A stretch of 47,649 nt of DNA, taken from NCBI GenBank assembly GCA_026026165.1, contig JAPEUD010000006.1, forward strand, positions 558,001 through 605,649. Direction: 5' to 3'. The position numbers and the translations under genes were made by a program. Position 1 is the stretch's first letter; each line of letters starts with the position of its first letter. The stretch is from Sarea resinae (taxonomy: Eukaryota). The notes under the pieces are model-generated. The model made no database searches and was not told where the DNA came from. It saw nothing but the letters and a program-made list of their open reading frames with translations. Of the stretch, positions 3,954-11,330 are shown piece by piece.

Positions 3954-5675
3954 TTAGAACAGCTTGTGCTCGAGAGTCATGTCAGACTCCGGCTCGAGGC
4001 CAACGCAGGCACGGAAGATGTTGGTCAGAGCGGAACGCTGCTTGGCCAAAGCATTGACGACTGGAGTGCCGGGTGGAGTAAGGGGAGCCTAATCGTCTTA
4101 TTAGTATTATAGTAAGACAGAAATAAGTTAGCAACCGACCTTAAGCATGAAGCTCAGAATGCTAAGCACACTGTGGAAACCCTTGTACTCCTCTGAGGAG
4201 GCCTCGTCTCCCGAGTGAGCCTTCCATGAGACACGAGTCATCATCTCCGCGATGAGGACCAAGTCAATAATGAGGGGAGACGCCAAGAGCGAATCCTCGC
4301 ACACGTTGAACAGACTGATAGTCTGGTGGCCACCCATGAAGATCTCGGCGTAGTACTCATCGAGAGCACGTTTGTTGTCGCCAACGGCGGGCATATACTT
4401 GATCACGACAGTATGGTTAGGGTGCTCGCCCTTCTTGTAGAGAACATTGTTGGCCTCAACCATGTCGTCAACGACATTGGACTTGGAGATCTCCTTGGAG
4501 CGGAACTGCTTTTGAGAGCTCAAGTTCTTGCCATCGTTGTTGCCGAGATGGTTGTAGCTCGCAATGGAGGTGAGCTTGATACCAGCGCTGATGAGGAAAT
4601 CCACAAGGGCAGACTTCATCTTCGTTTGACCGGACTTGAAGTCATCACCGCCGATGAAAGCGCCGTGCTTCTCAGCAAGCTGAATGGCACCGGGAACGAA
4701 GGTGTTCTGAGGAGAGCCGTTGATGAAAGGAGCGTTTTCAAGGATCGACGCAACAGCGAAGATGGTAGAAGGAGACACCTCTTCGTGTCCGGAGTCAATT
4801 GCTTTCAACAGATTGTCGGCAGTGTCGTTGACACCGGTGACGAGATCTGCGTATCGCTCAGTGTTGGCGGTCCACTGAACGATGACTTTGTCAAGGCCGT
4901 TCTTGGATTTGAAGTCGCTATTGAATGTTAATTTAAAACGAGTAGCAAGTTCATATGAATCGAAGACATACCGGATATCCTTGCGGATCTGCTCCACGTG
5001 GGCCATGGATGCCTTGGAGCCTTCCAGCACATTATCGGCGCGGTCCTCTTGGTTGGCAGCAATGAAATCAGGATAGTAGACACTGGGGAGAGGCTTCATC
5101 TCAGCCATCTCCTTCTTGACGAGGCCCTTCAGGGTCGGCTCGAGAACTTGAGCCCTGTCCATTGCCTCGGCGAGGTTCAAGCCACTGATGTCCCATCCTC
5201 CGATAACGAGGTCATTGGGGTGCACCATGGGCAGAATATCATAGAAAGGAATGTTGACCTCCTTTCCGGTCTTCGCCTCAGTGCCAAGCTTGATCGTAGA
5301 GCCCATGACAACTGACCCGTAGTAGTTGGCTGCACGCGGGCCCTCCTTGGTTTCCCAGGTCAAGCCACGGCGATTAGCAATGATACCAGCAGTGACCGTG
5401 GTTCCATTGTTACCACCCCAGCCGACAAGCATCATGCCGACCTTGCCGACCTTGCGGTCAACTTTGAAGTCGTAGAGGGTCTCCTTGGGGGTGGCCACGT
5501 ATTTTCCATCGCTGCCTTGGGTCACAGAGGTGGTGCGGTAGGTGTACTTGCTCTTGATCTCGTTCTCGGTATAGACGACATTGGGTGAGTTGACAGTGAA
5601 GAGGTCCTTGCTCTGAGTCACTGCTTGTCCGTTTCCGTTCGCATGGCCGTTGGCGGTATCCGCGTGGGGTGCCAT
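3954..5675 (-). CDS. INO1: myo-inositol-1-phosphate synthase (538 aa)
   Basis: Exons 5675-4972, 4917-4140 and 4088-3954, with introns 4971-4918 and 4139-4089. All four MIPS signature motifs are present ([36 protein letters not shown]). The C-terminus is [21 protein letters not shown]...MTLEHKLF*. Confidence 0.98.
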
Positions 5676-5708
5676 CTTGATATTGTTATTGGCTGTGTGA
5701 TAGTGGAT

Positions 5709-5965
5709 TTACTTGGTTTCTGGTAAATCCGATGCCCCTCCACGAGCGGATGAGCGTCGGCTTCCTGCGAACGGATGGTGGACCCTGTTTCGAGGCATTA
5801 GCAAGCTTGATCACCGACACCTTGATGATTGAGCCAGAGTCATTGCCACGATTTGCGGCAAAGATGATTCTCGCAATGGTGCGTGCTCTTCTCCAGAGAC
5901 ATCACAGAAAGTCTGCCATGTGCTGGAGGCGGGGTAACTCACGAGTTTAAGAGATTGGAAAACGT
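5709..5965 (-). other. Spliced, near-cognate (ACG)-initiated uORF in the INO1 5' leader, 32 aa
   Basis: ACG at 5965-5963 sits in a CAAG-ACG context, the same as the CAAG-ATG of INO1. The leader intron is 5942-5785 (GTGAGT..GCTAAT..CAG). The spliced ORF (M)FSNLLNSVHHPFAGSRRSSARGGASDLPETK* ends at 5709, 33 nt before the INO1 ATG. Confidence 0.65.
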
Positions 5966-6102
5966 CTTGGCGACTGGGTCGACCGCTCAAAGATTGCGAT
6001 CGGATTCGGGTGAGATGGGATTGATTGGGATCTTCTTGGATCAGTTCAATTGAGTCGGGGGTGGGTAATTTCTCAGAGGGGGGTTGAGGTTGGTCTGACT
6101 TC

Positions 6103-6108
6103 TTTATA
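6103..6108 (-). promoter_or_regulatory. Putative TATA box of INO1
   Basis: TATAAA on the minus strand about 140 nt upstream of the uORF ACG. Confidence 0.5.
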
Positions 6109-8914
6109 GACGTCGGATTGCTTAGGGCTTGTGGCTTCTCGGCTTCCTGGCGGGTAATTCGTCCCTTCGCAGGCGTGCACTTCGTACCTCGCACCCTCTA
6201 CTCCTACATAGTACTCCGATACATCGGCCCATGGCGGCATATCGATAAGGAAATTGGAAGAATCCGGACCCCTCGTGCTCGGCCACACACGATAGTCCAC
6301 TGTACTCCGGAGTAGTCCACGGTGGTCAACCGTTAGTGCTCGCCCGAGACAAGGATTCTCCAGCCAGACCCTCAACCACTCCAGGTGGGGTCGTGTCCCG
6401 CAGTCCAATTGCCATTCTCGCCCTCACGCCCGCTGCAAATCACCGTCTTCTTCGAGCTTAATGGACGGCCACCTCAATGCGTCTTCGACATAGCGAGCCA
6501 AAGCATGTTCGTTTTCTAGCCCGTGTGCACTGCATTGCTCTACCTGCCTAGCAAGATCACAACCCCTCGGTAAGGCCAACAACGATTCCGCACGAACGAT
6601 CATTTGACACATCAGAGCGAACGGGCAGTACCATTGGGGACAGTGATGGGGTAAAAGGCGGTCAGCAGTCAGCATCGTGGGAGCAACAACTCTCATCTCC
6701 ACCTCTTAGCCCAGACCAAGTGAAGGTAGCTACAATCAGAAAGAGCCCAAGCGAATGCGGCTTCTTGCGGAGTCGCGATCAATGATAGCATCACTTCGGA
6801 GTACCTAGGTAAGGTAGTTAGCTTGTCCACGGCAAGGCTCGTTCTGGATCGCTCTCGATCCAGACGAGAATAATAATGCAACTTCGAGCGAATTCAATAA
6901 CACTGATGGCTTGGAGATACGGTCACATTACCGACACGAACATGTTAGTCCCTACCTACATAGATAGTAGTACCTCTCCTACTTCCGGTCATGGCCCCAT
7001 CATCGTTGTTGGACACCAAAGTACCTCCTCTAGACGGTCAGTCAATCTATGATCTATGGGTGATATATCAAGCGAGCAACATCGATGCAATATGGGCGAA
7101 TGGAAGAGGCCGAGATGATCTGAAAGTGAGAACTGCAATAATAGCCAATGCACACGGTCAACTTGCCTATGAAGCCGCAGAGGACTGAGGTGGTCAATGC
7201 TGAGGTGGCACCTATTGGCAAAGAAGACTCGAGCCTCGTGCGTTCGTCGGCGCGCCATGGGAGGTGGATGGTAGTGTGTGAGTGGGCAGCGTCTACTTTG
7301 TACTGCTGGTCCCATTTGATGAGGATCTACTCTCGAATTGCCGAATGGAATCTCGCATTCAGGGGCAGTCGCTCGATGATAGGCCCAGTACGGAGGTACT
7401 CATCTCGGCACGGCCAGGATCTGACAACCTGGAAGGATCCAAGTTCCTCGCTGGTCTCATTGGTCATCCACGACAACGGCCATCACCATCTTCCTCTCCT
7501 TCGGAAGGAGGCCATGAGGATCCTCCTCCCTTTATCGTACTCGTAAGATTCGACAGAGCCCGACTGCCAAGCGCGGTCAGGGGTGCTCAAGGGGCTCTGG
7601 ACCTCCTGAGCAACCCGAGCCGACGGCCCTCACACGCTCTGGCTGGGCATGATGTTATTATTCTCCGGTCCAGTGTGTGAAATGCGCCGTGAGGACGGTA
7701 TCAGCGAGGAAGCACGGGGCAGACGAAGGCATGCTGGTACGTCGACCTTGATCGATGCGAACGCATTCTTCCTGCAGCTTGCATTATTAGGCCTCAGGAT
7801 CAATGCTACATCGAATCGCAATCACAGATCGTGGCCGCAGCGACGGTTCGGCCCATCTGCGAGACCTCTATTGACTGCACCAGAGGCAGAGCCAGAGGCA
7901 ATGCCGAAGGAAACGAGAGGACGCATCGTTTCATCTTGGCCATACATGCCAATCCCACTCTAGAACACTGACCTTACCTAAGGCTCCTTTGCAGCCGACG
8001 GGTGCAAATGGAGCCGAAGAGGTAGGTAAGGTAGCTTAGGAGGTAGTCGATGGTCGACGGTCGTTGATGATGTGAGGGCGGACTCGTGATACTACATGAC
8101 ACTACCTCTTCGGAGCAGGTCCCTGGCAACGCAAAACAAGGTACCTTGGGTGTGTCTGGTACGCAGCCCCGCACGCCTGTCGCCGCCCACCGCGTAGTCA
8201 CTGGATTGGGCCAGGTACCTCCACTCACCTCACCTTGCCTTTACGAGTACTGCCTTTGCCGTGCCTTAGCTAGTACAACTCTGCTCCCTGCTCTCGCAAG
8301 TCGCCACAGATCTACTCTACTCTAGAGAGGATCCTCCCCTTCTGCAAGCCACGTCGAAGTGGGCTTCTTGTCATCTGCAAACCACAAGGTAGATTATTCT
8401 TCCTCGCTACTCACGCTCTTTCGACTTTACTCTCCTACTCCTTCTTCCATCTCCCCACCGCGAGTCTGAGGCTCACTCGAGTCTTGATCCATCATCATTG
8501 GAGTGTTTGTTTTGGTGCTCCAGAGGGACAGTGCCCGCGTTATCCGCACACGTGCAAGTCAAGCCGGGGGTCGTACATTTCTCGCGAGACCTCATTTCCC
8601 GCTCCAGCCATACACACAAGATTGCCTCGACTCAGAGCGCTAAGGCGGAGACCCGCAGAGAAGGTTCCATCTTCTCCTTCACCGCGTGCATAATTCTTTC
8701 TTCGAGAAACAACACCACACTCCTTTGATGCTTTGACGGACGCTGTGCGATCTTGTCTGAGTGAGCCGCCCAGACCGCTCCAACGTTTCTCGTCGCTCTT
8801 TTATTCAAGCGTTCATCGCAACTTTGCAAGCTACAAGGTACATGTGTGGAGCTTTCGGTGTATGGCAAGTCGACGACAATCTAGGTAGATCTTTAGGAAC
8901 GGCCGATAGAGAGA

Positions 8915-11330
8915 ATGGCCGACACAATGAGCTCTTCGGGAATTCTTCCCACCATCAAGTGCTCGAATTGTGCTGCGGAAATTGAGATTTCGAGAATGGG
9001 AGATCATATCTGTTCCGGCGCTTCTGAACAACGTACGTCTGCGGAGCTTCTATTTGATGGAGAGGTCCATATCTGACGATTCCAGCACCTTCGTCGGCAC
9101 CACCAAGATTCCAAGGGCAGCGCGGTCCTACGGGATCTCCAACAGCGAGTGTTTCAAGCAGCTCAGGCTGGCTAAGACCTGGGAGGAGCCATCCGCCCAG
9201 GATAGATCCTTCCGCAGCCAGTCCGTCTTTCCCTGATGAGCCGTGATGTGCTCAACTCTGATTTTTCTATAGACCTGCCATTCCTACGCCAGGATCAGCT
9301 TACTCCGATGAGCATGTCGAGTAACTCTCGTAGCATGTCACCGTTGTCATTCCGTGACGGACGCTCTCCTGGTCATCGAATGCCGCCCCGGAGCGCGACG
9401 GCACCATTGGCTCGACCCGTTAGTCCACCATCTCCCGAATTAAGCAATCTTGACTGCGCCTTTCCGCCTTTTCCGTTCTCGACCCCACGAAGCGCAACAC
9501 CATCCGGCACCAGATCGAGGCAGAATACCAAGACATCAAACTATGCAGATCGATCTCGTCCAGAGCCGAGTCCCATGTTTGCCCCTCTCAGCCCTCGCGT
9601 GACCAGCGGGGATGCTGTTTTGAAGAGGATGAACACGATTGCTCCAGGACCTTTTGACATTCGAGGAAAGAATGGCGTATCTCAAGATCGAATAGCCGAC
9701 AGCATGGACGGGACCCGTGAGAGGACCGAGACTATGAGCAGCAATAAATCTTACAGCAGACCGCCAAGTGCGGCAAGTCATGCCGGTCGCTTTCAGCCGC
9801 CGTCGGCCGAAGTCCCAGAGATGCCGGTCTTGAGCAGTGAGCCAATACCACCAAGGAACGGTCTAGATCGCGATGGCCGCCCACTACCTAATGGACCAGC
9901 TCCGCCTCGACCTGCGCGTCCAGACGATTCTCCTGACCTCGGTGCTTTCGTGGAGCTTGAAAAGCATGGAATCGACCCAGCAACGCCTATTCAAGACATT
10001 CCGCCAAACTTCCCTCTGCCCAATTCAGTGCTCGGAGCGGGTCCGGGTCCTACAGGTCCTCTTCCTAGAAGACCTTCAGAACCTTCTGCCGCCCCACGCC
10101 CTCGACGTCCAACAATAACTTCAGGAGGAGCGGCAACTGATGATGGTGCAGGAGAGAACGGCTATGTCGCATATCAGCCTTCCGGTAGTGTCTCAGCGCA
10201 AACCAAACCCCCTCCGAGAACTTCCAGCCGCAATGGGGAAAGGGCCGATAGCAGGCTGGGAGATGCCCCTCCAGTCCCTAACCCAATCCCAACCGTTTCG
10301 GAGGATTATTCTGTCGGCAATCCTTATCACACTCCCACTGAGTCCGTTTCATCCAACGGATCCGGGTATGGTTCTGATGCCAAGACTGGTAGCTCAAGAT
10401 CAAGTCCGCCACTATCTGATGCCTCTGGCAACTTACGCGGGAAGCAGTCAGACCCTGTAAATATAGATAATGCTATCAATGACTTCCGGCCACCAAGGAC
10501 TGGATCGCCTTGGGGTGACGCTTCCGGGGCCAATAGCAGGCCACCGCCGATAAGAACAGGCTCACCTTGGAGTGATGCTGGCAGCGTCAATAGCAGAGGG
10601 CCTCCACCCAGCTTTAGCAGGCCAATGAGACCCATGGAGCCTCCCGAATCGCCAATGGATCCGGCCTACCAACGACGTCCTTTTCCCGCTCATCCGCCAA
10701 GTGGCCATCCAGCTGTCCCGCCTCCATTGAGACGGCCAGATGCACCAGCTCCTCAGCATCGACCGAATACTTCAGGCAAGGGGAAATGTAGAGGCTGTGG
10801 CGAATTGATCAAAGGCAAGTCTGTTAGTTCCGCCGACGGCCGACTGACGGGGAGATATCACAAGCAATGTAAGTCTACCTTGCCTTTCAACGCCTCTAGC
10901 TCTATACTCATATCATATGCGTTTCAGGCTTTGTGTGCCAGACATGCAAGGAGCCATTCCAGACCGCCGACTTCTACGTGATCAACAACCATCCATATTG
11001 TGAACGTCATTACCACAAACTGAACGGTTCATTATGCGAGAGCTGCGACCGAGGCATCGAAGGAGAGTACCTGGAAACGCAACAGAAGAGGAAATTCCAT
11101 CCTCATTGCCTCACTTGCAGCGTAAGCATCATCCACCAGTCCAGGATCTCTGGAGCCAAGACTAATATTCTATCAAGACCTGCAATAAGAGCTTAAGCGA
11201 CGATTACTTTGAAATGAACGGCAAAGTCTATTGCGAGCGAGACGCTGCCCGCGCTGCCCAGCAGACAGCCTTTTTAGGCCCCGAGCGCAAGAACCCTGAG
11301 AGGAGAACTACGCGTTTGATGATGATGTGA
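8915..11330 (+). CDS. PXL1: Paxillin-like protein with two C-terminal LIM domains (731 aa)
   Basis: Exons 8915-9032, 9086-9220, 9273-10868, 10928-11121 and 11178-11330, all with GT-AG introns and a closed frame. It has an N-terminal PTIKCSNC..EISRMGDHIC motif, PPRIDPSAAN and a long Pro-rich middle. LIM1 is CRGC..YHKQCFVCQTC..YCERH, LIM2 is CESC..FHPHCLTCSTC..YCERD, and the end is NPERRTTRLMMM*. Confidence 0.85.

Follow-up and report, generated by a model that had tools for sequence, protein, structure and literature searches.

Metabolite-sensing nascent peptides are rare: the known cases respond to arginine, polyamines, sucrose and ascorbate, and each has added to our understanding of how small molecules are read in the ribosome tunnel. 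The INO1 gene of budding yeast is known for a different mode of control, being the textbook case of transcriptional lipid-precursor control. To our knowledge, filamentous fungi have not kept this transcriptional circuit for INO1, and a deeply conserved translational element would add a missing control layer for the gene.

The closest described translational systems come from both fungi and plants. The arginine attenuator peptide (AAP) of Neurospora arg-2 and yeast CPA1 has a start that is bypassed by leaky scanning and a peptide that lies wholly within the exit tunnel; conservation is high in its core and lower in the tail behind it, the ribosome stalls at the stop codon of the uORF, and nonsense-mediated decay (NMD) is a second output (portions of PMC11550727). 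The conserved coding uORFs (uCC) of ornithine decarboxylase (ODC) homologues and AZIN1 use non-AUG starts (AUU, UUG, ACG) in good context, are also found in Pezizomycotina, and repress in a peptide-dependent manner (portions of PMC2811004). For AZIN1 it is proposed that a paused ribosome causes scanning ribosomes to queue back to the weak start (portions of PMC11550727). Finally, the plant GGP/VTC2 uORF starts at ACG, encodes a conserved peptide and lies before the enzyme that controls a small-metabolite pathway; feedback by ascorbate through ribosome stalling is proposed, changing the ACG to AUG increases repression, and the portions of the source cited here treat direct metabolite sensing as unproven (PMC11066809).

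We use comparative analysis of DNA sequence to study a frame of this general kind in the INO1 leader of Sarea resinae. We find no description of an INO1/inl uORF in open-access PMC and bioRxiv full text (supplementary files aside). The preliminary description of this DNA had mentioned reports of an "inositol regulatory peptide" in the Neurospora inl leader, which we could not trace to any paper in open-access PMC/bioRxiv; the main text of a 2017 mBio paper on conserved non-AUG starts makes no mention of inositol, inl or ino1. An INO1 uORF peptide switch has apparently not been described before.

The split frame in the INO1 leader

The window (the whole 47,649-nucleotide stretch analysed here) carries the gene for myo-inositol-1-phosphate synthase, INO1, on its minus strand at 3954..5675. 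Its three exons (5675-4972, 4917-4140 and 4088-3954) join into a single open frame of 538 amino acids whose product matches Pfam family PF07994 at E = 6e-63; the relatives of this INO1 are at most 84% identical to it. All features of the leader described below lie on the same strand. A TATAAA box, read directly from the sequence at 6103..6108, stands 138 nt 5' of an ACG codon (5963..5965) that codon counts over 59 distinct sequences point to as a near-cognate start. The ACG is preceded by an initiation context (5966..5974, delimited by column entropy over the same 59 sequences) that ends in CAAG, with C at -4 and A at -3. The INO1 start has the identical CAAG context: CAAG-ACG is found at 5969-5963 and CAAG-ATG at 5679-5673.

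From the ACG, a first exon of 23 nt (5943..5965) encodes the start codon, FSNLLN and the first two bases of a Ser codon. It is followed by a phase-2 intron of 158 nt (5785..5942) with a GTGAGT 5' splice site (5942-5937), a branch-like GCTAAT (5802-5797) and a terminal CAG (5787-5785). The second exon (5709..5784) supplies the last base of the split codon, 24 codons that include the HHPF core, and a TAA at 5711-5709. Once spliced, the uORF is 99 nt long, 32 sense codons plus TAA, and a spacer of 33 nt (5676..5708), not conserved in sequence, separates its stop from the INO1 ATG. The preliminary description placed the TATAAA, the CAAG-ACG, the intron, the 99-nt frame and the 33-nt spacer exactly; its translation is reproduced from the spliced frame, and the spliced leader (6100-5676) is indeed free of ATG, the intron containing four.

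If the intron is retained the uORF frame ends immediately, at TCG TGA; with GTRAGT sites in phase 2, an unspliced leader has a uORF that stops after 8 codons. Retention of 5785-5942 would also expose the four ATGs in the window and alter which upstream frames are read. We also considered a CTG at 6044 with A at -3, which opens a 66-codon frame across the spliced leader, and rejected it because this is another frame and is closed in many relatives. Farther upstream of INO1, the next long ORF (9236-10978, plus strand, 581 aa) is divergent and matches no Pfam family at E <= 0.01; in the roughly 3.3 kb between it and the INO1 leader the sole ORF of at least 130 aa is one of 132 aa at 7148-7546.

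To see whether the leader occurs in joined form, we aligned Logan contigs from three small-share runs of one study to positions 5300-6300 at 80% likeness. The contigs come from relatives of Sarea resinae, and that the runs are RNA is a guess. Record 4 of run X1 (432 nt) aligns over 5510-5783 with 20 mismatches and 6 gaps, then continues at 5942-6014 with 8 mismatches, so that it skips exactly 158 nt with GT..AG ends on the gene strand; a further 79 unlike letters lie upstream, and the record extends at least 128 nt 5' of the ACG. Record 6 of X3 (1981 nt) and record 5 of X2 (1583 nt) represent a more distant relative, whose INO1 coding pieces have 46 mismatches to the window over 311 letters and 35 over 249, respectively (about 85% identical), whereas the core of uORF exon 2 (5722-5781) differs at only 2 of 60. 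In X3 record 6, exon 1 joins directly after two replaced letters. At the loose end of X2 record 5 the CAAG-ACG is kept and exon 1 has two synonymous changes, with Val replaced by Thr at the junction codon. The spacer is unalignable in both.

The junction 5943/5784, which the preliminary description had proposed, is therefore present in joined form in contigs of two relatives (from runs guessed to be RNA), and in these relatives the uORF and the INO1 coding sequence share one spliced contig, which places the uORF in the 5' leader to the extent that the guess about run type is right. Strictly speaking, the joined contigs could stem from intronless DNA, an origin that is conceivable because five lineages have DNA without the intron.

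Conservation of the frame ahead of fungal INO1 genes

To examine how widely the uORF occurs, we ran a pattern scan of JGI metagenome contigs based on aligned INO1 exon-1 proteins, which gave 548 confirmed relatives, and analysed the best 80 of these (L001-L080; 70-85% identity, partly redundant loci). Five loci with 0-58 nt of upstream DNA (L052, L061, L069, L070 and L078) were left out, making 75 that can be judged. Both exons of the uORF are found in 72 of these 75. The complete uORF could be reconstructed in 70, and L050 and L080, at first set aside because the N-terminus of INO1 was unaligned, have both exons in the right order. In L059 and L044 the contig end cuts the uORF, leaving exon 2 visible and, in L059, the last codons of exon 1 as well. 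In L037 (2391-2483) there is an intronless, divergent frame of 30 codons that starts at ATT in a CAAC context, ends 4 nt past the INO1 ATG and so overlaps it, and retains only F..S..HH.PY. This frame may be a decaying or remodelled uORF, and such a divergent remnant would mean that the uORF can decay.

Together with the window, the reconstructed set comprises 71 uORFs, which amount to 59 distinct nucleotide sequences and 55 distinct peptides. Length is nearly constant across all 59: 30 have 31 codons and 29 have 32, owing to a single indel at column 21. The phase-2 intron occurs at the same site in 66 of 71 uORFs (54 of 59 distinct sequences), with GT..AG ends and a length of 48-467 nt (median 107, distinct sequences). 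It has been lost at least five times with the frame undisturbed, the exons being contiguous and in frame in the five intronless loci. The stop is TAA in 51/59, the spacer to the INO1 ATG measures 31-171 nt (median 53) among the 59, and that ATG has A or G at -3 in every one of them. No ATG occurs in the spliced leader 3' of the uORF start in 66 of 71; L004-L008 have one each, in the spacer. One clade (L025, L032, L045 and L046) stands apart in having an ATG start after an in-frame TGA, His-Asn-Thr in place of His-His-Pro, and a spacer of 166-171 nt.

Among the 59 distinct sequences the start column holds ACG in 48, ATG in 6, CTG in 3 and ATT in 2 (54, 12, 3 and 2 among all 71), so that every state is AUG or one base away from it. 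Wherever the codon at this position reads as Thr it is ACG (48/48), never ACA, ACC or ACT, while the Thr codons at column 32 are ACC in 20, ACT in 9, ACA in 3 and ACG in none. On a tree of INO1 exon-1 DNA the start state has changed at least six times, with three ATG clades, two CTG and one ATT. The context is conserved too: column entropy over the distinct sequences is 0.13 bits at -4 and 0.48 at -3 and rises to 1.7-2.0 beyond -10, conservation setting in abruptly at about -9. Because it is sharp at -4/-3 and absent beyond -10, we take the start codon to be the 5' edge of the element, and what stands at this edge is a conserved, in-frame, near-cognate codon in good context. Position -3 is A in all 53 non-AUG starts and T in all six ATG starts, four of which are directly preceded by an in-frame TGA. 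The pairing of ATG with T at -3 looks like compensation that keeps initiation weak; the association comes from 2-3 independent events only (sign test p = 0.5).

Variation within the frame has a coding signature. Mean column entropy at codon positions 1, 2 and 3 is 0.82, 0.67 and 1.38 bits over the 59 distinct sequences. A codon model (GY+F3X4) gives omega = 0.20 with lnL -3240.5; when the topology is kept and omega set to 1, lnL falls to -3427.1. Saturation of the codon tree, whose length is 42 for an alignment of 32 codons, makes the value rough, and its direction is not in doubt. The dN/dS below 1 expected in the preliminary description is thus borne out. Residues that never change are spelled in many ways, with six codons used for Leu6, five for Ser8 and three for Gly15, and the other two frames contain internal stops in 27/59 and 33/59 sequences. 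Conservation of the peptide is strong over about 27 positions. The best-kept parts are FSNLLNS, then His, His/Asn, Pro, Phe/Tyr, Ala/Asn, Gly, x, Arg, x, Ser, and then Gly-Gly-Ala-Ser-Asp, and they are followed by five last residues that are variable in identity and constant in number. Pro is commonest at column 12 (49/59) and column 29 (31/59); the consensus of the 59 peptides has no Pro-Pro pair, and two sequences (L034 and L048) have PP within a variable stretch.

These features weigh directly on the idea that the conserved object is a non-coding element, such as an RNA structure, splicing signals or a DNA binding site, in which the open frame is incidental. The near-identity of exon 2 in the more distant relative (58/60 nt, against about 85% for INO1 coding sequence) would suit such an element, and the intron site is itself kept. 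Three-base periodicity, free synonymous turnover at invariant residues, the low omega and the stops in the other frames all run counter to it, as do the five lineages that keep the frame without the intron. Nor does a structured RNA emerge: the covariance models of Rfam 15 gave no match at E <= 1 on either strand of 5600-6200, and neither the spliced uORF nor the leader folds with a better energy than its mononucleotide shuffles (z = -0.26 and -0.36). We consider a non-coding origin of the pattern excluded for practical purposes. By contrast, we hold it nearly certain on the comparative evidence that the frame is genuinely coding, that purifying selection maintains this uORF and that it starts at the position of the ACG. 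Because the split frame recurs in 72/75 loci with omega near 0.2, its occurrence upstream of INO1 is, as judged from these alignments, far beyond chance, and a conserved, near-cognate-initiated coding uORF before INO1 is well supported. The conservation of peptide, start position and intron position that the preliminary description predicted is what these loci display.

How far the uORF reaches across fungal classes can be gauged from a profile search with the peptide, which at E < 0.02 matches 14 short database proteins and about 26 longer ones. Nearly all are NCBI "hypothetical protein" models with the uORF peptide at the C-terminus behind unrelated N-terminal sequence. They include Fusarium, Verticillium, Colletotrichum, Claviceps, Purpureocillium, Mycothermus, Thermothelomyces (Sordariales) and Sodiomyces among Sordariomycetes; Botrytis, Monilinia, Hyaloscypha and Clarireedia among Leotiomycetes; Aspergillus, Penicillium, Talaromyces, Paecilomyces, Thermoascus and Thermomyces among Eurotiomycetes; and Alternaria and Plenodomus among Dothideomycetes. 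The class was checked for five species, the models being identified from protein sequence and not from genomic context, and the remaining genera are placed in the classes to which we take them to belong. The peptide of L036, whose uORF precedes INO1, is matched at 100% identity by the Fusarium models, and in the Eurotiales models the start position is occupied by Ile, in agreement with the ATT of L054 and L074. Together the matches point to the presence of the uORF in four classes: Sordariomycetes, Leotiomycetes, Eurotiomycetes and Dothideomycetes.

The same search exposes a blind spot in annotation, as the uORF frame is invisible to ORF finders that require AUG or that read unspliced DNA, and gene callers that did catch it have produced spurious "hypothetical proteins". 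About 35 NCBI models under that name from named Pezizomycotina (within P0122-P0162) end in the uORF peptide and begin at an unrelated upstream ATG; they have the look of artefacts that arose when gene callers imposed an ATG start on the leader. The expectation in the preliminary description that the uORF would be missing from annotation is only mostly true, as those models do contain the peptide, if by accident. We asked whether P0157, a Penicillium arizonense model of 465 aa for an MFS sugar transporter (PF00083, PF07690) that ends in the 24 exon-2 residues, might be a second use of the uORF, and rejected this since the peptide trails a complete transporter. P0157 is most likely a merged gene model, which would mean that in Penicillium arizonense the INO1 leader has a transporter gene directly upstream, on its own strand.

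A possible route from the peptide to INO1 expression

We think it probable that the uORF peptide acts in cis as a nascent chain and represses INO1 through a leaky weak start combined with stalling. In this scheme most scanning ribosomes would bypass the weak start and reach the INO1 AUG, and the few that translate the uORF would stall, probably at or near its stop codon. A core at a fixed distance from the stop, followed by a variable tail of constant length, fits a stall at that codon, as described for AAP (portions of PMC11550727); in length the entire peptide roughly equals the exit tunnel, and the FSNLLNS...HHP[FY].G.R.S core would be inside the tunnel during the stall. The stalled ribosome would then obstruct the scanning ribosomes behind it. 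From start to stop the uORF spans 93-96 nt, about three ribosome lengths, so that a queue could hold a ribosome at the weak start, much as is proposed for AZIN1, and make repression stronger. The uORF also ends far upstream of the introns in the coding sequence, which would perhaps expose the mRNA to NMD as well.

Purifying selection cannot by itself separate action in cis from action in trans, and one may therefore ask whether the product is a free, trans-acting micropeptide with a cellular function of its own, expressed together with INO1 from a single mRNA. Begun at a near-cognate codon, or at an ATG in the poorest of contexts, such a peptide would be made in very small amounts, and it resembles nothing in the collections searched: the two full-length peptides compared with Pfam (L036:218-313 and L079:190-282) match no family at E <= 0.01, no solved PDB chain resembles the uORF peptide, and no usable match to it appears among ESM Atlas clusters. 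The fixed length, the fixed distance from core to stop and the place just upstream of one gene are typical of leader peptides that act in the tunnel. A micropeptide acting in trans is in our view improbable.

If the peptide does act in cis, the next question is what, if anything, sets the strength of the stall. INO1 is the first committed enzyme of inositol synthesis, and because the uORF precedes it, end-product feedback is the natural guess, with the ACG-started GGP uORF of plants as a parallel (portions of PMC11066809). Here myo-inositol or a close derivative would strengthen stalling, so that more product would mean more stalling and less INO1. We put this forward tentatively, at a little short of an even chance, with the identity of the downstream gene as what suggests it. 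The explanation as a whole, a cis regulatory nascent peptide that includes inositol feedback, we regard as evenly poised. Should inositol indeed act on the uORF, fungal biotechnology would gain a compact and portable translational switch.

The serious rival is a peptide that acts in cis without sensing inositol, as a constitutive damper, as a reader of start-codon stringency (eIF1/eIF5/eIF2), through polyamines/eIF5A, or in response to some other signal. A weak start tuned by its context is a trait of uORFs that sense stringency; the conserved uORFs with non-AUG starts in front of ODC homologues are responsive to polyamines (portions of PMC2811004); and the downstream gene is the one thing that ties this uORF to inositol. 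However, some 27 strongly conserved positions would be superfluous in a mere damper, the peptide has neither the adjacent prolines nor the Pro-Ser end of polyamine-type elements, and in the 80 loci examined, all of them INO1 loci, it is found only before INO1. We judge such a mechanism rather unlikely, and it is nevertheless the one against which inositol feedback has to be weighed.

Returning to inositol feedback, its most specific form is one in which the ribosome carrying a chain of 31-32 residues would itself sense myo-inositol or an inositol phosphate. On this account the invariant length would be a ruler for a queue of three ribosomes behind the stalled one, queued ribosomes on the ACG would switch the uORF on cooperatively, and the arrangement would go back to an ancestor shared by Sordariomycetes, Leotiomycetes, Eurotiomycetes and Dothideomycetes. 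So detailed a proposal is possible, and we would sooner doubt than assert it. Were it true, this would be the first inositol-responsive arrest peptide.

Comparison with known regulatory uORFs

The uORF shares with the general class of conserved-peptide uORFs with non-AUG starts the mark of purifying selection, here an omega of 0.20 and other frames that are closed. With AAP it has in common that a fungal leader peptide stands before the gene of a biosynthetic enzyme. The two differ in that AAP starts at AUG whereas the INO1 uORF usually starts at ACG, in the pathway they precede, and in the intron that splits the INO1 uORF. The gene that AAP precedes encodes the arginine-specific carbamoyl-phosphate synthetase's small subunit, and the gene here is INO1 (PF07994). 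The search of Pfam with two INO1 uORF peptides, which at E <= 0.01 returned no family, hence no homology to the arg-2/CPA1 leader, is relevant here too, as Pfam presumably holds a CPA1-leader family.

The plant GGP/VTC2 uORF matches the usual ACG start. It differs in being plant, not fungal, and we take its peptide to be about twice as long as that of the INO1 uORF. The uCC is found before ODC homologues, whereas the gene downstream here is INO1. It has two adjacent prolines near the C-terminus and responds to polyamines, and in Pezizomycotina it is about 100 codons long (portions of PMC2811004), in contrast to the peptide before INO1, which has no Pro-Pro in its consensus and is 31-32 codons long. 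By analogy, then, the INO1 uORF would resemble AAP, the ODC uCC and the GGP uORF in how it works, and it appears to be a member of none of them.
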